Counted from the stretch's first letter, positions 1-8,569 are shown. The stretch: DNA of 64,000 nt from Bacilli bacterium (GCA_017522615.1 JAFWYR010000023.1:996-64995); one strand, 5' to 3'. Program-made: numbers and translations. The notes: a model not told the origin generated them from the sequence alone.

Positions 1-332
1 AACTAACATTAAAGCAAAATATCATCAGTACGCTATCAATAATTATAGGTGGACTTGTATATCATATAGTTCTAGTTAAGCTAGGTGGAACAGTTGCATG
101 GTTAGATGCTTTTACTTTAAGTATAGGAATCGTTGCCGTAATTTTACAAATGTTCAGATATAAAGAACAGTATTTCTGGTGGATTATCACAGACGTAATA
201 GCAGTAGCAATGTACATAATACATTTTGACCCAGTATATCTAACCAAAAAAAGTATTTACTTAATAATGGCTATAATAGGCATTGTCAACTGGACAAAAC
301 TAAACAGAGAACGTAATAAAACAAATGAGTAA
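1..332 (+). CDS. pnuC: Nicotinamide riboside transporter PnuC, C-terminal portion (5' end outside window)
   Basis: Frame 3 is open from the window edge to TAA 330-332. The translation ...LGGTVAWLDAFTLSIGIVAVILQMFRYKEQYFWWIITDVIAVAMY... resembles the conserved C-terminal TM helices of PnuC. An NrtR-type regulator lies 1.3 kb downstream. Confidence 0.75.
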   Translation, partial: LTLKQNIISTLSIIIGGLVYHIVLVKLGGTVAWLDAFTLSIGIVAVILQMFRYKEQYFWWIITDVIAVAMYIIHFDPVYLTKKSIYLIMAIIGIVNWTKLNRERNKTNE

Positions 333-342
333 GAGGTTAAAT

Positions 343-693
343 ATGTTTAATGAAGAAGAAATAATTGAATTTATAAATCGTATTATAAATTCACCCAATA
401 TAGATGATAGCGAAATAAAAACAAATATCACAAAATTTTATGAATATATTGTATTAACAAATATGTGTGATGATGAAACATTAAAAAAAGTGTCAACGAT
501 AATAGAATGCTTAAATGAAATACTCGCATTAAAGAAAAAAATAGAATATATCGACGTAAATAGCCTAATTTCAAAATCTAATAATCCAAAAAATTATCAA
601 AAAATACCAAATAATAGACATTTTTGTCATTATGAAAGTGGCGGTTATTCATCTTCATGCGGGTCTTCAAGAACGTATAGTAGTCATTGTTAA
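343..693 (+). CDS. Hypothetical 116-aa protein, helical N-terminal region plus Cys/Ser/Gly-rich C-terminal tail (candidate substrate of adjacent radical SAM enzyme)
   Basis: ATG 343 is preceded by AAGAGG (331-336), so the track start at 325 is less likely. The tail reads ...NNRHFCHYESGGYSSSCGSSRTYSSHC-stop. The stop overlaps the next start (TAATG, 691-695). Confidence 0.55.
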   Translation: MFNEEEIIEFINRIINSPNIDDSEIKTNITKFYEYIVLTNMCDDETLKKVSTIIECLNEILALKKKIEYIDVNSLISKSNNPKNYQKIPNNRHFCHYESGGYSSSCGSSRTYSSHC

Positions 694-1598
694 TGGAACA
701 AATTAAATTATTTAATCAACAACTAACCGTAAAAAATGAACTATGTAGTGAAGATCCAAAAGACATAAAATTATCAAGTTCAAAACTTAGATTATATATT
801 AAATTAACAGATGATTGTAACGCTCACTGTGGTTTTTGTGCAAATCAAAATAGCCAAGATTATGGAAATATAGATATGGATAAATTAAAATATGTAATTA
901 CATATCTTCTATCAAAAGATAAATTACATGGCATATCCATAACAGGGGGAGAGCCATTAACACATCCAGATAAACTATTTCAAATATTTGATCTTATTTA
1001 TAAGCTAAATCCAAATATCGAAGTTCAATTATCCACAAATGGTTATAACTTACTAAAATTATTAGAATATGATAATATAAATAAACTCGAAAGCATTCAC
1101 ATTTCAAAACACCATTATAATGATGAAATAAATTATGAAATCTTTAAATCTAAAAACATAGCTTCATCTGATGATATTTCAAAGTTAAGTCAAAGTCTAG
1201 AAGATAAACAAATAATTAATATAAATACGATAATTATGAAAGAATATATTTCTAACTTAAAAGAGATAAAAAATATGCTAGAACATACAGCCCAACTTGG
1301 TGTATATAAAAATGGTTTTGTATCTTTAATTAGATGTAATGAATTTGCAAAACAAAAATATATTAATTTTAATGAAATATTTAATAATTTAGATAAATCA
1401 TTTTTCAAAGGACATCACTTTTATCATAGAAATTACTGCGAATGCTTATGTGGAATGTATTTAACCAAAAATAATAAATTAATTGAATTTTACGCTCGCA
1501 TGATAAATAATAATCCATGCCCATATACATCTCAGTTAGTATATACATCAGATAATAAAGTAACAGCAGGATTTAGTAAAAAAATAATATATAAATAA
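693..1598 (+). CDS. Radical SAM enzyme, compact (~300 aa), family unassigned
   Basis: CNAHCGFCANQ is the CxxxCxxC motif about 45 aa from the N-terminus, and GISITGGEPL is the SAM-binding glycine motif. A C-terminal Cys group (YCECLCG...NPCPY) suggests a possible auxiliary cluster. The start is coupled to the upstream ORF. Confidence 0.85.
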   Translation: MEQIKLFNQQLTVKNELCSEDPKDIKLSSSKLRLYIKLTDDCNAHCGFCANQNSQDYGNIDMDKLKYVITYLLSKDKLHGISITGGEPLTHPDKLFQIFDLIYKLNPNIEVQLSTNGYNLLKLLEYDNINKLESIHISKHHYNDEINYEIFKSKNIASSDDISKLSQSLEDKQIININTIIMKEYISNLKEIKNMLEHTAQLGVYKNGFVSLIRCNEFAKQKYINFNEIFNNLDKSFFKGHHFYHRNYCECLCGMYLTKNNKLIEFYARMINNNPCPYTSQLVYTSDNKVTAGFSKKIIYK

Positions 1599-1671
1599 TT
1601 ATAACTACAAAATAATAATGTAGAAAAAAGAAAAAAATTAATGTATAATTAATTCATAGAAGGTGAATAAA

Positions 1672-2493
1672 ATGTATAGTACTGAAGAAGAATTCTTAAA
1701 AAATTATAACCCTGATGAATTTGAAAAATTATCGATGACAACCGACATTATGATTTTAAGCGTATCAGACCAAGAGGTTTCAAATTATCGAAAAACAAGC
1801 AAAAAAATGATGAGTATTCTTCTAGTAAAAAGAGATGATTTTCCATATAAAAACAAATGGTGTCTTCCAGGAGGTTTTCTAAACCCATCAACGGAAACTT
1901 TAGAAGAATGCGCAAGAAGAGTATTAAAAAGAGAAACGAATCTATCCGACATATATATGGAACAGTTATATACATTCGATAGAATAGACCGAGATCCTAG
2001 ACTAAGAGTAGTATCATGTTCTTATATTGCCTTAGTGGATAAAAAAAGATTAAACCAAGAAGTTAAAAACGCCAGCTGGTTTGATATTATAGACATAAAA
2101 GAGGATAAAGGAATCGTCCGCCTAACTTTAAGCAATGGCAAAGAAATAATAGACTTCAGCGTAAAAAAGACTCTAAGAAAAAATTCATCAGATCGTTATT
2201 CTTTTGAAACTGACAAAAATGATTCTTTAGCGTTTGATCACGATATTGTTATTCTTGCTGGATTAGAAAGAATAAAAAATAAGATAAACTATACAGATAT
2301 CGTCTTTAATATGATGGGAAAATATTTTACTCTAGGTGATTTGCAAAGGGTATATGAAGTAATACTAAACAAAAAATTATTAGATCCTGCATTTAGAAGA
2401 ATAATTGCGGATAAAGTAGAAAAGACCGATAAAATGCGTGGTGGTGAAGGACATCGTCCATCCTATTTATATAAATATAAGAAATCAGAATAA
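1672..2493 (+). CDS. nrtR: Nudix-related transcriptional regulator of NAD metabolism (NrtR-like)
   Basis: It has the Nudix box WCLPGGFLNPSTETLEECARRVLKRETNL plus a C-terminal winged-helix-like segment FTLGDLQRVYEVILNKKLLDPAFRR. ATG 1672 follows AGAAGGTGA. It is near pnuC. Confidence 0.7.
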   Translation: MYSTEEEFLKNYNPDEFEKLSMTTDIMILSVSDQEVSNYRKTSKKMMSILLVKRDDFPYKNKWCLPGGFLNPSTETLEECARRVLKRETNLSDIYMEQLYTFDRIDRDPRLRVVSCSYIALVDKKRLNQEVKNASWFDIIDIKEDKGIVRLTLSNGKEIIDFSVKKTLRKNSSDRYSFETDKNDSLAFDHDIVILAGLERIKNKINYTDIVFNMMGKYFTLGDLQRVYEVILNKKLLDPAFRRIIADKVEKTDKMRGGEGHRPSYLYKYKKSE

Positions 2494-4092: not shown

Positions 4093-4335
4093 ATGAAAAT
4101 TATCGTAATAAGCGCAATATGGTGTCCATCTTGTTTAATACTATCAAAACATTTAAAAAAATTAAAAGAAAAATATCCAAATTTAGAAATAGAAAAATAT
4201 GATTATGACTTTGATGAAGAGGAAGTAAAAAAATATGAAGTTGGTAAAATCCTTCCAGTAATCATCAAAGGAGATAAAAGACTAATTGGTGAAAAGACTC
4301 TAGAAGAAATTGAGGTGTTTATAAATGAAGAATAA
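4093..4335 (+). CDS. Small thioredoxin/glutaredoxin-like protein
   Basis: WCPSC redox motif at the N-terminus of an 80-aa protein. It overlaps the next gene. Confidence 0.55.
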   Translation: MKIIVISAIWCPSCLILSKHLKKLKEKYPNLEIEKYDYDFDEEEVKKYEVGKILPVIIKGDKRLIGEKTLEEIEVFINEE

Positions 4336-5500
4336 AATAATATTATTAATACTAGCTATTACAATTTTTCTTCCATTAAATGTATCAGCTTTATCAGATA
4401 AATATGTCGATAAAGTAGCAAGTATAACAGGTGAAGAAGTAAAAGAAGATAAAATAAGCATCTACCTATTTCATGGAGAAGAATGTCCTCACTGTGCGGA
4501 TGAAAAGAAGTGGTTAAAAACCATGCAAAAAGAATATGGAAAATATATAGATATATATACTTATGAAGTATGGCACAATGATGAAAATGTTGAAAAAATG
4601 GAAAAGGTAAGTGAAGAATTAAAAGCTGATGCCGACGGAGTACCATTCACAATTATTGGAGATACGTATTTCGTTGGATATTCTGATACAATAGCTTCAA
4701 AAATGGAAAATAAAATAAAAGAATATGCTGAAATAAAAACTAATTCTGATGAAGCTGATATTCCAATTCTGGGAAAGGTAAATGTCAAAAAAGTATCCAT
4801 TCCTTTAGTGGCTGTAATTTTAGGATTTATAGATGGATTTAATCCATGTGCTATGTGGATTTTACTATTTTTAATTAACATGTTTTTTAATATGAAAAAC
4901 AGAAAAAAAGCATGGATACTTGGAATAGTATTCCTTCTAGTATCAGCTTTTGTATATTTCTTATCCATGTTAGGAATAAATTTAATATTAGGAATTGCAA
5001 CTATTAGTATTCTTAAAATTGCCATCGCCGTATTTATTTTAATTGCTGGAATACTTAATCTAAAAAAATATATAACTATCAGAAATGAAGAAAATGGCTG
5101 TACCGTAGTCGATGATAAAAAAAGAAAAAAATTAATAACAAAAGTAAAAAAAATAATGGACAGTAAAAGCTTTATATTATCTATTGTTGGTATAATTTTA
5201 TTAGCCACCTCAGTTAATTTAATCGAACTTGCGTGCTCTCTAGGATTTCCAATGATATTTACAGAAATACTAAGTATTAATGAAATAACAGGACTACCTA
5301 GAATATTAAACTTACTACTATATATTGTATTCTATATGATTGATGATATGGTTGTATTTACAATTTCTATGGTTACCTTAGAAGCAACAGGTATAACAAA
5401 CAAATATAATAAATTATGTACATTAGTAAGTGCGATAATAATGATAATTATGGGACTATTATTAATCCTAAAACCAGAATGGTTAATGTTAAATTTTTAA
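4325..5500 (+). CDS. Membrane protein: exported thioredoxin-like domain fused to a DsbD/CcdA-like polytopic domain
   Basis: An N-terminal signal/TM segment is followed by GEECPHCADEKKW (CxxC), then multiple TM helices including GFIDGFNPCAMWILLFL (a conserved membrane Cys, as in CcdA/DsbD-type electron transporters). Confidence 0.55.
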   Translation: MKNKIILLILAITIFLPLNVSALSDKYVDKVASITGEEVKEDKISIYLFHGEECPHCADEKKWLKTMQKEYGKYIDIYTYEVWHNDENVEKMEKVSEELKADADGVPFTIIGDTYFVGYSDTIASKMENKIKEYAEIKTNSDEADIPILGKVNVKKVSIPLVAVILGFIDGFNPCAMWILLFLINMFFNMKNRKKAWILGIVFLLVSAFVYFLSMLGINLILGIATISILKIAIAVFILIAGILNLKKYITIRNEENGCTVVDDKKRKKLITKVKKIMDSKSFILSIVGIILLATSVNLIELACSLGFPMIFTEILSINEITGLPRILNLLLYIVFYMIDDMVVFTISMVTLEATGITNKYNKLCTLVSAIIMIIMGLLLILKPEWLMLNF

Positions 5501-5513
5501 GGAGATGATATAA

Positions 5514-6623
5514 ATGATATATTTAGATTATGCAGCTAATACTCCAGTAGATGATAGAGTATTAAACACTTTTATAGAAGCCACAAAAAAATATATGGCA
5601 AACCCTAACAGTTCACATTATATAGGGAAAAAAGCTAAAGAAATCATCGACGAATCATCAGAATATTTAGCTGATTATTTTAACTGCAAAAAAAACGGAA
5701 TAATATATACAAGTGGATCTTCCGAATCCAATAATTTAGTTATCAAAGGAATTGCTGAAAAAAATAGAAATAAAGGAAACAAAATAATCATCTCTGCCGT
5801 TGAACACTCAAGCATTGTCGCCCCTTGTAACTATCTATCATCCAAAGGATATGAAATATCAGTTATACCTTTAGATGAAAACGGATTAGTTGATCTAAAA
5901 ATATTAAAAAAAGAAATAGATGAAAATACAATATTGACAAGTATAAATGCGGTTGACTCAGAACTAGGAACAAGGCAACCTATAGAAGAGATAGGAAAGA
6001 TAGTAAAAAAATATCCAAACTGTGTATTTCATACAGACGCTACTCAAGCTATAGGTAAAGTAGATATTGACTATAAAGATGTCGATTTCATTACATTTGC
6101 TCCTCATAAATTTTTCGGACTAAATGGATTTGGCGTCTTAATAAATAGAAATAATATAAAAATAACACCTTTAATTCACGGTGGAAAAAGTACAACTATC
6201 TTTAGAAGCGGAACCCCCGTAACCGCAAATGTAATAGCTTTAAAAAAAGCTTTTGAACTTGCCACTGAAAATCTAGAAGATAGATATAAATACATATCAA
6301 ATTTAAATAAAGAATTAAGAGAAAAGTTAAGTAAAATAAAATGTATACACATTAATTCACCAAAATCATCAATACCAAACACTTTAAACATAAGTCTAAT
6401 TGGTAAAGATACAAAAAGCATTTTAAAAGAGCTAGAGAAAAACGAAATATATGTATCAACAACTACTGCCTGTGCTTTAGGAGATGCTCCTTCAAAATCA
6501 GTTCTAGCCATAACTAACGATAAATCATTAGCTTCCAATACGATAAGAATAAGCATTTCACATTTGACAAAAAAAAGTGAGATAGATAAATTTATCAACA
6601 TATTAAAATCACTCTTAAAATAG
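5514..6623 (+). CDS. Cysteine desulfurase (class V aminotransferase, NifS/IscS-like)
   Basis: MIYLDYAANTP start, FAPHKFFG (PLP lysine) and STTTACALG (active-site Cys loop). Confidence 0.85.
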   Translation: MIYLDYAANTPVDDRVLNTFIEATKKYMANPNSSHYIGKKAKEIIDESSEYLADYFNCKKNGIIYTSGSSESNNLVIKGIAEKNRNKGNKIIISAVEHSSIVAPCNYLSSKGYEISVIPLDENGLVDLKILKKEIDENTILTSINAVDSELGTRQPIEEIGKIVKKYPNCVFHTDATQAIGKVDIDYKDVDFITFAPHKFFGLNGFGVLINRNNIKITPLIHGGKSTTIFRSGTPVTANVIALKKAFELATENLEDRYKYISNLNKELREKLSKIKCIHINSPKSSIPNTLNISLIGKDTKSILKELEKNEIYVSTTTACALGDAPSKSVLAITNDKSLASNTIRISISHLTKKSEIDKFINILKSLLK

Positions 6624-6698: not shown

Positions 6699-7319
6699 GT
6701 GAAATTGAGAAATTATGATTTAGAAGTTCTAATATCAGAAAATATTGACATCACAAAACTAGAAGACTCAAACTTTGACTCTCCTTTAGGTACTGGTTCT
6801 ACCTCAGGATTAATATTTGGAACAACCGGAGGGGTATGTGAAGCAATACTTAGAACAGCTTACTATTATATGAATGGAGAAAACTTATCTAAAGACAATC
6901 TAATTTTTAAAGATATAAGAGGAATGAATGGTATTAAAGAAAGTAAAGTAAAAACAAAAGATAGAGAAATAAAAGTAGCAGTATGTAATGGAATAAAAAA
7001 TGCCAAAAAATTAATAGATAAATTGATAAAAAAAGAAGTACATTATGATCTTATCGAAGTAATGAATTGTATAGGTAGATGTATAGCTGGAGGAGGACAA
7101 CCTAAAACCTCACTCCTAGAATCATCAAAAATAAAGAAAATAAGAATGGATTCGTTATATAAAGAAGATGAAAAAAAGACACTAAGATTATGTCATGGAA
7201 ATAAAGAAATAATAGATATATATGATAACTATTTAATAAAACCAAATAGCGAGATAGCTTTAAATTTATTACATACTCACTATGAAGATAAATCAAAAAT
7301 GTTAGGAGGAGATATATAA
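6699..7319 (+). CDS. [FeFe]-hydrogenase-like C-terminal module only (lacks the N-terminal part of the H-domain)
   Basis: GTTGGVCEAILRTAYYY and EVMNCIGRCIAGGGQP (7056-7103) match the last H-cluster motif region ExMxCxxxCxxGGGQP. The tail SLYKEDEKKTLRLCHGNKEIIDIYDNYL resembles the small-subunit domain. The TSCCP and MPCxxK motifs are absent. The start is GTG 6699 or TTG 6705. Confidence 0.65.
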   Translation: MKLRNYDLEVLISENIDITKLEDSNFDSPLGTGSTSGLIFGTTGGVCEAILRTAYYYMNGENLSKDNLIFKDIRGMNGIKESKVKTKDREIKVAVCNGIKNAKKLIDKLIKKEVHYDLIEVMNCIGRCIAGGGQPKTSLLESSKIKKIRMDSLYKEDEKKTLRLCHGNKEIIDIYDNYLIKPNSEIALNLLHTHYEDKSKMLGGDI

Positions 7320-8569
7320 TGATAGATTTAGAAAATTCAAAATTAGCCCTTCACTGTCTTTCGTGTGTTACGAAACCATGTCAAGTGGGATGTCCTCTTA
7401 ATAATGATATACCAACTTTTATAAAATATATTAAAGAAAATAATTATGAAAAAGCTTTTGAAACATTACAAGAAACAAGTGTGTTAACTCCGATATGCGG
7501 TAGGATTTGTCCACATTTTCAGCAGTGCCAAGGTTCATGTGTTAGAAGATTCTCATCTGAACCAGTTCAAATTGGCAAATTAGAAGCTTTAGTTGGAGAT
7601 ATTGCTTTAGAAAAAGAATGGAATATCTATTCACCAAAAGAGACTAAATATAATGTTGCCGTTATTGGTTCAGGCCCAGCTAGCCTTACATGTGCAGCTT
7701 TCCTAAGAAGAAATGGTATAAAAGTAACTATATATGAAAAATATGATCATTTAGGTGGAATACTTTCCCATGGGATTCCAGACTTTAGACTAGACCCTAA
7801 AATAGTAAAAAAAGTCATAGAAAGAATAATAGATTTAGGAATAGAAGTAAAATACAATATAGAATTAGGTAAAGATATAAAACTTGAAGAGTTAAAAGAA
7901 AACTACGACGCTATATTTATTGGAATAGGTGCTAACATATCGAATCAAATGAATATTCCAGGAGAAAATTTAAAAGGAGTATATGGAGGAAACGAAGTTT
8001 TAGAGCGTAATATCCAAGTAGATTATAAAGGAAAAACAGTAATTGTATCAGGTGGAGGAAACGTCGCAATGGATATATCTAGAACAGCCAAAAGATTAGG
8101 TGCGAAAAGAGTAATAGTTGTATATAGAAGAAGTGAAAAAGAAATGCCAGCAGATAAAAAAGAAGTAGAAGAAGCTAAAAATGATGGTGTTGAATTCATA
8201 TATCAAACTAATATAGTTAAAATTTTAGGACAAGAAAAAATAGAAAGAATAGAAGTAGTTAAGACAGAATTAATACAAAAAGAAGGAGAGACAAGACTAT
8301 TGCCAATCAATATAGAAGGAAGTAACTATGAAATATCTTGTGACATAATAATGATGGCCATAGGTTCTCATCCCGAAGAATATGTAAAAGATTTTAATTT
8401 AGAAAAAAACAGCCAAGGGAAAATAAAGATAGATAAAGATAATCATACATCAGATAAAAAAGTTTTTTCAGGAGGAGATGTAGCCGGAATAAAATCCACA
8501 GTTGCCTGGGCATCACGTTCTGGAAGAAATGCAGCTTACTCTATAATAAAGTATTTAAAAAGCCTCTAA
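7319..8569 (+). CDS. GltD-like NAD(P)H-dependent oxidoreductase (glutamate synthase small subunit family)
   Basis: N-terminal Fe-S Cys motifs (CLSCVTKPCQVGCP...ICGRICPHFQQCQGSC) and two Rossmann motifs (VAVIGSGPASL, VIVSGGGNVAMD). Its start overlaps the upstream stop. Confidence 0.8.
   Translation: MIDLENSKLALHCLSCVTKPCQVGCPLNNDIPTFIKYIKENNYEKAFETLQETSVLTPICGRICPHFQQCQGSCVRRFSSEPVQIGKLEALVGDIALEKEWNIYSPKETKYNVAVIGSGPASLTCAAFLRRNGIKVTIYEKYDHLGGILSHGIPDFRLDPKIVKKVIERIIDLGIEVKYNIELGKDIKLEELKENYDAIFIGIGANISNQMNIPGENLKGVYGGNEVLERNIQVDYKGKTVIVSGGGNVAMDISRTAKRLGAKRVIVVYRRSEKEMPADKKEVEEAKNDGVEFIYQTNIVKILGQEKIERIEVVKTELIQKEGETRLLPINIEGSNYEISCDIIMMAIGSHPEEYVKDFNLEKNSQGKIKIDKDNHTSDKKVFSGGDVAGIKSTVAWASRSGRNAAYSIIKYLKSL

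Follow-up and report, generated by a model that had tools for sequence, protein, structure and literature searches.

The stretch of DNA analyzed here, hereafter the window, covers 64,000 nt of a Bacilli bacterium (GCA_017522615.1, JAFWYR010000023.1:996-64995) and opens with two coupled genes that lie between pnuC and nrtR, two genes of nicotinamide adenine dinucleotide (NAD) metabolism. The first of the two encodes a small protein that ends in cysteine, the second a radical S-adenosylmethionine (SAM) enzyme. Our analysis suggests, with about an even chance of being right, that they form a dedicated enzyme-partner pair of a previously undescribed family, which would act on the terminal cysteine of the partner and would be accessory to the salvage of nicotinamide riboside (NR) and NAD. 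The features of the locus that bear on this proposal are the following (aa, amino acids; ORF, open reading frame; AF2, AlphaFold2; pLDDT, predicted local distance difference test).

1..332 (+), last ~110 codons of pnuC (nicotinamide riboside transporter), a gene truncated by the window start
331..336 (+), Shine-Dalgarno-like AAGAGG, read from the sequence, 6 nt before ATG 343 and overlapping the pnuC stop at 330-332
343..693 (+), small-protein gene, 116 aa; ORF with the stop codon included (TAA 691-693)
343..570 (+), predicted helical-bundle domain of the small protein, residues 1-76 (AF2 and alignment), with the helix 1 motif EIIEFxNRIIN
577..687 (+), predicted disordered tail of the small protein, residues 79-115 (HFCHYES..SSSCG..), AF2 pLDDT <50
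688..690 (+), codon of C116, the terminal cysteine of the small protein (counts of family ends, alignment A3)
693..1598 (+), radical SAM gene, 301 aa, stop codon included; its start overlaps the upstream stop (TAATG)
744..746 (+), codon of C18, a cysteine after the N-terminal beta-hairpin; invariant in alignments A2, A4, and A5
816..839 (+), Cx3Cx2C motif (CNAHCGFC; C42/C46/C49) within the PF04055 match; invariant in all alignments
1098..1118 (+), HISKHHY, residues 136-142 (family consensus HISRHHY); H136, S138, and H140 invariant in A4
1437..1445 (+), C249-E-C251 (CxC), where the beta-rich C-terminal domain begins; both cysteines invariant in A4 and A5
1663..2493 (+), nrtR (Nudix-related, ADP-ribose-responsive NAD regulator); PF21906 57.7 bits, PF00293 49.4, NF050029 142

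The small ORF ends in ...HFCHYESGGYSSSCGSSRTYSSHC, with TGT at 688-690 followed by TAA at 691-693, and the ATG of the radical SAM gene (693-695) uses the last A of this stop codon; homologues of the enzyme start at the same methionine. We place the start of the small gene at ATG 343, and not at ATG 325, because its homologues begin with MF(N/D)E. The pnuC fragment was recognized by its C-terminal 60 aa, which are matched by TIGR01528 and PF04973 in an NCBIfam/Pfam scan. In a terminator scan of the window, no site resembling a terminator separated the small gene from pnuC or from the radical SAM gene, and the pnuC 3' end and the pair are predicted to form one transcription unit. This layout, a 116-aa ORF coupled via TAATG to a radical SAM enzyme of about 300 aa between pnuC and nrtR, had been described in the first-pass annotation, and the motifs listed there for the enzyme (CNAHCGFC, GGEPL, YCECLCG, and NPCPY) are all present.

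What, then, defines the small protein? We found 17 close homologues and 66 representative clusters, the latter from a profile search of 1.84 billion representative proteins, and a distant set of 68 sequences was retrieved independently from 5.8 billion sequences. The sole invariant column of the small-protein alignment A3 is a cysteine at the last residue. This terminal cysteine is present in 74 of the 78 close-family proteins of at least 95 aa and in 66 of the 68 distant ones, the remaining two having the cysteine in the penultimate position; more than that, 54 of the 68 contain no other cysteine. Partners across the family measure about 85 to 150 aa, and the window member, encoded beside the enzyme gene, shares the terminal cysteine in the form of C116.

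The AF2 model divides the window protein into a helical bundle at residues 4 to 76 (pLDDT about 87 to 92; helices 4-15, 22-39, 44-55, 57-67, and 72-76) and a disordered segment at residues 79 to 116. The invariant columns of the close-lineage protein are concentrated in the first ~76 residues (EIIEFxNRIIN...). There was no significant family match for the small protein in NCBIfam, Pfam, PADLOC, or PHROG, and no match for its fold in the PDB with an E-value below 2. Tails of the close lineage contain KHYxHY and end in Y-x-S-(R/H/G)-C; they also carry between 0 and 4 SSSCG-like units, some members having plain tails. Outside the close lineage, HYxHY and SSSCG are seen in the phages described below but not in the versions from Clostridia and Erysipelotrichaceae. 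In the distant proteins (87 to 111 aa), a similar amphipathic helix, (L/I)LxFIxRI(V/I), is found at the N terminus, and the tails differ completely: in Clostridia they form an Arg/Glu-rich helix or segment ending in (G/S)RC, and in Erysipelotrichaceae they end in ...P(H/S/G/Y)C. Homology of the close and distant proteins is likely, and their proposed equivalence rests mainly on synteny and architecture.

These comparisons change the view of the tail. The first-pass annotation had suggested, as an example, thioether or other radical crosslinks on a Cys/Ser/Tyr-rich tail. Because distant tails have a single cysteine and no Ser/Gly/Cys repeats, the Cys/Ser/Tyr-rich tail is not the conserved feature of the substrate and is unlikely to be essential to it; the terminal cysteine is the only invariant and the tails vary, and therefore multiple tail crosslinks are not the core function. 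Two further ideas about the additional cysteines were rejected. Metal or Fe-S binding by C42, C56, C106, and C116, which are invariant in the close lineage, does not hold as a general role, since distant homologues have the terminal cysteine only. A coupling of the extra tail cysteines with C215 and C276 of the enzyme fails because the phage enzymes lack both, yet have partners with SSSCG-like tails.

More than 250 homologues of the enzyme were found, nearly all of them about 301 aa long. PF04055 (56 bits) and PF13353 (Fer4_12; 39 bits) are the only Pfam domains in the enzyme. It was proposed earlier that the protein leaves no room for a classical recognition element (RRE) of the kind used for ribosomally synthesized and posttranslationally modified peptides (RiPPs), and that the long helical region of the partner might replace it. 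Both points stand: 41 residues precede the cluster motif, these adopt a short beta-hairpin in the AF2 model, Pfam found no RRE or PqqD-like domain in the enzyme, and the confidently predicted helical bundle with its disordered tail could stand in for an RRE-recognized leader. Pfam found no SPASM/twitch signature (PF13186) either, consistent with the earlier statement that the C-terminal cysteines do not make up a full 7-Cys SPASM pattern. The C-terminal Cys group itself is present in the window enzyme; its conservation across the family is limited to C249 and C251.

The AF2 model of the enzyme (pLDDT 85.8; predicted template modeling score 0.86) combines a partial TIM barrel with a beta-hairpin at the N terminus and a beta-rich domain at the C terminus. 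A Foldseek search of the PDB returned MoaA as the top match (template modeling [TM] score 0.65 over the full length, 18 to 20% identity), followed by viperins (TM 0.5 to 0.6) and then BlsE, SuiB (SPASM), EpeE/YydG, SkfB (twitch-type), and NifB. The enzyme alignments A2, A4, and A5 jointly span Bacilli, Clostridia, Erysipelotrichaceae, and phages, with A5 consisting of 7 sequences, including 3 huge-phage enzymes. Invariant across lineages are C18, C42/C46/C49, GGEP, S138/H140, C249, C251, Y256, and Y267, and the window enzyme carries all family invariants (C18, Cx3Cx2C, HxSxH, and CxC). H136 is invariant in A4 and no longer so in the phage-containing A5, and the TNG motif, invariant in A4, reads TDG in two of the three phage enzymes. 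C215 and C276 are limited to close relatives, and C253 to the window sequence and its closest relatives. HISKHHY aligns with the 'INVSLDA' segment of MoaA in a profile alignment and is probably part of the active site. C18, C249, and C251 are candidates for the three cysteine ligands of an auxiliary cluster that leaves one coordination site open. MoaA has a three-Cys cluster of this type, made by its extra C-terminal cysteines, with the substrate bound to the open iron.

No named maturase family could be assigned in the first-pass annotation, and we reached the same result, as none of the curated models in NCBIfam, Pfam, PADLOC, and PHROG claims either protein as a family member. The enzyme scores far below the NCBIfam cutoffs for MoaA (60.3 bits against 284 for TIGR02666 and 53.8 against 325 for TIGR02668), for the maturase of the tungsten cofactor (61 against 380), for HxsC (TIGR03977; 54.6 against 267.9), for viperin (NF038283; 41.8 against 180), for the activases NrdG2 (35 against 131) and PFLA (31 against 232), and for enzymes of mycofactocin and pyrroloquinoline quinone (PQQ) synthesis (19 to 45 against 265 to 381). 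Distant enzymes of the family likewise remain far below every NCBIfam cutoff. PADLOC and PHROGs gave only weak matches to prokaryotic viperins (pVip; PADLOC models, 35 to 53 bits) and generic radical SAM matches. In the full-text literature, searches that paired radical SAM enzymes with PnuC, NadR, NrtR, NR, huge phages, or a C-terminal cysteine turned up neither a description of the pair nor a paper that connects such an enzyme with pnuC, nadR, NrtR, or NR salvage.

The surroundings of the pair consistently contain genes of NAD metabolism in the Bacilli. On the source contig (L072; 131.6 kb, from a Bacilli metagenome-assembled genome [MAG]), the gene order is pncA-like (isochorismatase), nadD, a gene for a nicotinamide mononucleotide adenylyltransferase (NMNAT), pnuC, the small gene, the radical SAM gene, and nrtR. 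The full PnuC of this contig has 237 aa and scores 118.8 bits against the TIGR01528 cutoff of 42.45, which the PnuC proteins of three other loci (L001, L044, and L034) pass too. Related Bacilli ('Tenericutes'-like MAGs, Candidatus Coprovivens, and Candidatus Faecimonas; 52 to 83% identity) have an operon of the order (prs), nadD, pnuC, nadR, small gene, radical SAM gene, pncC (CinA), and nadK, with nrtR nearby. Wherever these loci include at least 2 kb of upstream sequence, pnuC and nadR are found immediately upstream (17 of 17), and in most of them prs and nadD lie upstream and pncC, nadK, and nrtR nearby. In the first-pass annotation, the cassette looked like an insertion between pnuC and nrtR, a view that has to be given up: the pair is a conserved member of the NAD operon in all 17 of these loci and, across four distant lineages that include huge phages, mostly lies next to the genes for PnuC and a NadR-type adenylyltransferase. 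A nadR-pnuC-nrtR operon is known in streptococci (PMC2330246).

The two genes of the pair also keep company with each other. In every close-relative locus with upstream sequence, the small gene lies directly 5' of the enzyme gene, usually overlapping it or separated by 1 to 2 nt, and on long contigs homologues of the two proteins occur on the same contigs. Distant full-length enzymes (23 to 33% identity) were found in Lachnospiraceae, Butyrivibrio, Acutalibacteraceae, Saccharofermentans, Solobacterium/Erysipelotrichaceae, and one 'actinobacterium' bin, and at these distant loci the small gene lies either upstream or downstream of the enzyme gene. Twelve of the 19 distant loci contain pnuC and a gene for a NadR-type enzyme, in several gene orders. 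NadR of the L001-type operons is full length and passes the NF005988 cutoff (214 bits against 201), and the NadR-type protein of the source genome is a 164-aa NMNAT domain (58 bits to TIGR01526) without a kinase domain. Both types, full NadR and NMNAT-only with PnuC, accompany the pair in both Bacilli and Clostridia, and we therefore infer that the association was assembled or kept more than once, that is, selected. As a side observation, the adenylyltransferase-only NadR of ~164 aa lies beside pnuC at L072 3894-4388, L004 3372-3866, and L034 8905-9411; between Bacilli and Solobacterium this adenylyltransferase is 59% and its PnuC 62% identical, the radical SAM enzyme 33%.

Full-length homologues of the enzyme are also encoded by four huge uncultured phage genomes (635 to 735 kb). 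Two phages of ~640 kb, LR756502 and LR745206, contain a complete four-gene module of pnuC, nadR, a gene for a Cys-terminal protein, and the radical SAM gene. In LR745206 (L076 6173-8897), pnuC and nadR are followed by the gene for an 86-aa protein ending in ...GCGGGSYRRSSC and then by the enzyme gene; in LR756502 (L075 7602-10810), a 129-aa protein ending in ...SSSCGDSKPSSDCGMGGGYSTSRC precedes the enzyme, and a short way downstream nadR and pnuC occupy the opposite strand. A scan of IMG/VR gave two partial, weak radical SAM matches only. Phage modules of PnuC and NadR, such as NARP3, restore NAD from NR when NADase-based defense is active (PMC13464706); the main text of that paper does not use the word 'radical'.

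In Clostridia, the pair is part of a larger cluster that comprises the small gene, a gene for a leucine-rich repeat (LRR) protein of 310 to 390 aa, the radical SAM gene, and genes for a DUF2201_N (HExxH) plus DUF2201 (VWA) protein and a MoxR-like AAA_5 ATPase. The three extra proteins are found in essentially all Clostridial loci with enough sequence (L044 7028-11371, with equivalents in L027-L043), and their genes are absent from the window, the related Bacilli operons, the Erysipelotrichaceae loci, and the phage loci. The 310- to 390-aa protein has a BspA-type LRR N-domain, to which the matches of a PDB profile search were confined, and a C-domain ending in ..VYAKYRLL..; a PDB search revealed no solved relative of the DUF2201 protein. 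The DUF2201 and MoxR proteins match the common phage families phrog_1314 (7e-67) and phrog_1297 (3e-73). They may be functional partners, as peptidase or chaperone, or they may be neighbors on a mobile element or prophage cargo. The cargo idea is weakened by one Butyrivibrio locus that lies between metNIQ-purF and purB-MTHFR. This locus, in Butyrivibrio sp. VCB2006 (L037 2273-16614), is a cluster of radical SAM, small, LRR, DUF2201, and MoxR genes without pnuC or nadR, located between a methionine ATP-binding cassette (ABC) transporter (metNIQ) plus purF and purB plus MTHFR.

How might the pair work? We hypothesize that the helical domain of the small protein docks on the enzyme and that its terminal cysteine, through the free thiolate and the alpha-carboxylate, attaches to the open iron of a three-Cys auxiliary [4Fe-4S] cluster or close to it. 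The cysteine must be the last residue, which leads us to propose that the free alpha-carboxylate is recognized. There is precedent for both elements, as MftC acts on a C-terminal tyrosine and free cysteine chelates the auxiliary cluster of HydG. The 5'-deoxyadenosyl radical would then abstract a hydrogen atom, and the terminal cysteine would be changed, either by formation of a C-S bond via its sulfur or oxidatively, by decarboxylation or C-beta oxidation. A pyridine nucleoside or nucleotide from PnuC/NadR would most likely be the second reactant or the target of the modified protein. The reaction presumably serves NR/NAD salvage because the pair is located in an operon with PnuC and a NadR-type enzyme. 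Any one of these chemical outcomes, taken singly, must be regarded as rather unlikely at best.

Several observations weigh against this proposal. The putative role of the small protein as the substrate rests on its adjacency, the coupling of the genes, and the invariant terminal cysteine. The close and distant small proteins are only weakly alike, hhalign aligning 19 columns (E-value of 0.0018, probability 15%), with the N-terminal helix as the only stretch aligned. A CxC pair is an unusual cluster-binding motif. The residues by which MoaA binds the triphosphate of GTP are not kept, K69 and R71 being replaced by H79 and S82; the counterpart of R17 (R33) occurs in the close lineage alone, distant lineages having lost it. 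Because these residues are not conserved, binding of a nucleotide in the manner of MoaA is unlikely. In Clostridia, the most constant neighbors of the pair are the LRR-type protein, the DUF2201 protein, and the MoxR-like ATPase. Neither pnuC nor nadR is present at L032, L036, and L037, distant loci whose upstream flank measures 6 kb or more, so that the link between the pair and NAD salvage is strong but not absolute. Finally, phage LR756501 (L074) encodes the enzyme without a recognizable Cys-terminal partner, and the LR756503 match is identical to it. The pairing of the two genes, which the first-pass annotation had suggested as a check, was found in every close-relative locus with upstream sequence.

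The strongest competing explanation, which we consider doubtful but deserving of attention, is that the true substrate is a small pyridine nucleoside or nucleotide (NR, nicotinamide mononucleotide, NAD, ADP-ribose, or a noncanonical riboside) and that the small protein is not permanently modified. Its terminal thiol would then serve as a donor of a hydrogen atom or electron, as a recyclable sulfur carrier, or as the fourth ligand of the auxiliary cluster. The closest folds, MoaA and viperin, belong to enzymes that abstract hydrogens from the ribose of nucleotides, and the pVip models recognize the enzyme, if weakly. Viperins and their prokaryotic counterparts share with it the radical SAM core fold and an association with nucleotide metabolism and phage-host conflict; they differ in having no auxiliary-cluster cysteines and no protein partner, and they occur in the context of CTP/UTP/GTP kinases rather than NAD salvage. 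The tight tie of the pair to PnuC and a NadR-type enzyme in bacteria and phages is as expected for a small-molecule substrate, and a lone universal thiol on a flexible arm fits a donor or relay. Some radical SAM epimerases (YydG, NeoN) use a cysteine as hydrogen-atom donor; however, to our knowledge, the thiol donors in such enzymes are the enzyme's own residues. A single cysteine alone cannot deliver two electrons, the triphosphate-binding residues of MoaA are not conserved, and a stoichiometric partner of 90 to 140 aa would be costly for a salvage step. Moreover, the very last position of the cysteine is left unexplained.

It is less probable still that the small protein is a scaffold for the synthesis of a cofactor or other small molecule, in the way of mycofactocin, PQQ, or the pearlins, with the terminal cysteine being modified and then cleaved off. 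The product could be a signal, a redox cofactor, or, by analogy with LarE and the nickel pincer, a pyridine cofactor that has been thiolated, and PnuC/NadR would supply or handle the nucleotide moiety. An invariant C-terminal residue on a variable scaffold is a feature of MftA (C-terminal ..VY) and TglA-Cys. In the mycofactocin (MftA/MftC) and PQQ (PqqA/PqqE) systems, as proposed here, a radical SAM enzyme acts on a ribosomal scaffold with a defined C-terminal residue that matters, and mycofactocin is in addition functionally tied to nicotinamide-cofactor enzymes. In the Clostridial cluster, the DUF2201_N protein with its metallopeptidase-like HExxH motif, its VWA domain, and the MoxR ATPase could release a product or insert a metal, and the several SSSCG units in close-lineage tails could give several turnovers. 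However, no peptidase is present in the window, the related Bacilli operons, the Erysipelotrichaceae loci, or the phage loci, whereas the clusters of MftC and PqqE contain one, and the DUF2201 and MoxR proteins, which match widespread phage families, are possibly unrelated neighbors. MftC and PqqE also have SPASM domains and need an RRE protein (MftB, PqqD), and their scaffolds measure ~30 aa; here there is neither an RRE nor a SPASM domain, and a folded scaffold domain of 75 residues is far larger than typical leader peptides.

The idea closest to the first-pass annotation is a classical RiPP, a bacteriocin or signal with thioether or other crosslinks in the tail and unrelated to NAD metabolism. 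We now regard it as very improbable; what endures of the maturation pair suggested earlier is a dedicated radical SAM enzyme with its small protein, in a family without a name, and a secreted antimicrobial peptide is an unlikely product. The order of a precursor-like gene followed by a translationally coupled radical SAM gene favors the idea, tail motifs recur inside the close lineage, and there is weak profile likeness to HxsC, YydG, PqqE, and the KxxxW maturases. On the other hand, the terminal cysteine and not the tail motifs is conserved family-wide, and chance would not be expected to place such a pair inside the NAD operon of small-genome bacteria and beside pnuC and nadR in four lineages and in phages. 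The locus lacks an RRE, SPASM, a protease, an ABC exporter, and an immunity gene in the window and on L072. The absence of an adjacent protease, transporter, or immunity gene had been noted before; this is correct for protease and immunity genes and for transporters only if PnuC is set aside.

Comparison with individual maturases leads in the same direction. CteB, SkfB, and EpeE/YydG, that is, the sactipeptide, ranthipeptide, and twitch-type enzymes, perform radical SAM chemistry on or with a cysteine of the substrate, and in CteB the substrate cysteine binds the open iron of an auxiliary cluster. They differ from the present enzyme by RRE and/or SPASM/twitch signatures and by acceptor residues that are conserved in the peptide; here only the terminal cysteine is conserved and the context is metabolic. 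HxsC is a non-SPASM radical SAM enzyme with a repeat-tailed partner, a recurrent subthreshold match (35 to 55 bits), and close-lineage tails contain HYxHY(E/S)S. Unlike the Hxs system, which is itself uncharacterized, the pair has no hxsB or hxsD nearby, its neighbors being NAD genes, and the His motif is missing in distant lineages.

Most improbable of all is a divergent form of a known housekeeping enzyme, for instance MoaA, QueE, or an activase of glycyl-radical enzymes, beside an irrelevant upstream ORF; this reading is effectively refuted by the scores, as the curated models reach 10 to 25% of their cutoffs. MoaA is the best match in the PDB and among the best in NCBIfam, shares the compact size (about 300 to 340 aa) and the extra C-terminal cysteines, and gives its name to some homologues in the annotation of the Joint Genome Institute (JGI). 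However, the MoaA auxiliary-cluster motif (CX2CX13C versus C18 plus CxC here, the profile alignment covering the core only) and GTP-binding residues are absent, and among the labeled neighbors of the examined loci there is no moaC/moaB or other molybdenum-cofactor context, no gene for a glycyl-radical enzyme, and none of queuosine synthesis. The upstream ORF, moreover, shows conservation and always accompanies the enzyme as its dedicated partner.

Downstream of the pair, the intergenic region 1605..1649 and the end of nrtR contain further elements that could bear on regulation.

1605-1623 (+), palindrome CTACA-N9-TGTAG in the intergenic region ahead of nrtR
1621-1649 (+), promoter-like TAGAAA-17-TATAAT ahead of nrtR, its -35 hexamer overlapped by the palindrome
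2492-2509, terminator-like hairpin after nrtR (terminator scan)

The position of the palindrome over the -35 hexamer could allow autoregulation of nrtR. We dismissed TACA-N9-TGTA as an operator common to the loci, because its matches elsewhere sit inside the nadR coding sequence, and riboswitch control, because a comparison of the window and of 10 loci with Rfam gave no match. On the source contig, a perfect palindrome, CTTGTTATTAA-N7-TTAATAACAAG, with 11-nt arms, lies in L072 2428-2468, some 2.3 kb before the window begins. It encloses the -10 box of a promoter (TTGACA-17-TATAAT) that precedes the operon-opening pncA-like gene, and two further half-site repeats, TTATTAACAAAAAG, follow. The palindrome is a candidate repressor operator, possibly for NrtR. 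The core of the NrtR operator was published as GT-N7-AC (PMC2330246) and is not seen in the palindromes at 1605-1623 and L072 2440-2468.

Other genes in this part of the window are recorded here for completeness. Just after nrtR, positions 2565-2997 contain overlapping ORFs of 63 and 82 aa, the second with a Coat_F (spore-coat-like) Pfam domain. A row at 4093-6623 encodes an 80-aa thioredoxin-like protein, a 391-aa membrane protein of DsbD/CcdA-like appearance with an N-terminal CxxC domain, and a class-V aminotransferase/cysteine desulfurase; a thiol-redox or Fe-S supply cluster, a few kilobases from the radical SAM gene, is possible. At 6699-8569, a protein of ~205 aa with [FeFe]-hydrogenase large-subunit C-terminal and small-subunit domains adjoins a 416-aa GltD-like Fer4_20/Pyr_redox_2 oxidoreductase (Pfam).

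Radical SAM enzymes paired with a cognate ribosomal partner are already known. The present family is set apart by the architecture of the enzyme, the folded scaffold partner defined only by its terminal cysteine, the NAD-salvage context under NrtR, and the presence in huge phages. Salvage by PnuC and NadR is regarded as a complete and fully understood two-protein pathway that needs no further enzyme, and its described versions, including NARP3 of phages, have no radical SAM enzyme or Cys-terminal protein; in the loci studied here, PnuC and the full-length NadR pass their curated cutoffs, and two conserved extra genes are embedded in the pathway. The embedded genes imply an unrecognized step, substrate, or control point. 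The pair is found in numerous reduced-genome Firmicutes of gut and rumen, and it recurs in huge phages.

A bolder version of our proposal, for which we see a limited chance, is that the pair is a missing enzymatic component of pyridine-nucleoside salvage. The small protein would be a dedicated carrier, and with its terminal thiol the enzyme would capture, convert, or thiolate a riboside or nucleotide of the nicotinamide type that PnuC and the NadR-type enzyme deliver. If so, radical chemistry would be added to NAD metabolism, one version would involve a covalent Cys-S-nucleotide intermediate or an NAD-derived protein-bound cofactor, and huge phages would hold an extended four-gene module for NAD reconstitution.

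For radical SAM enzymology, the pair presents a minimal system, a 301-aa enzyme without RRE or SPASM whose partner is defined by one C-terminal cysteine. On the side of annotation, the labels 'MoaA' and 'hypothetical protein' on several hundred protein clusters would change. For phage biology, the known counter-defense modules that reconstitute NAD may be extended.

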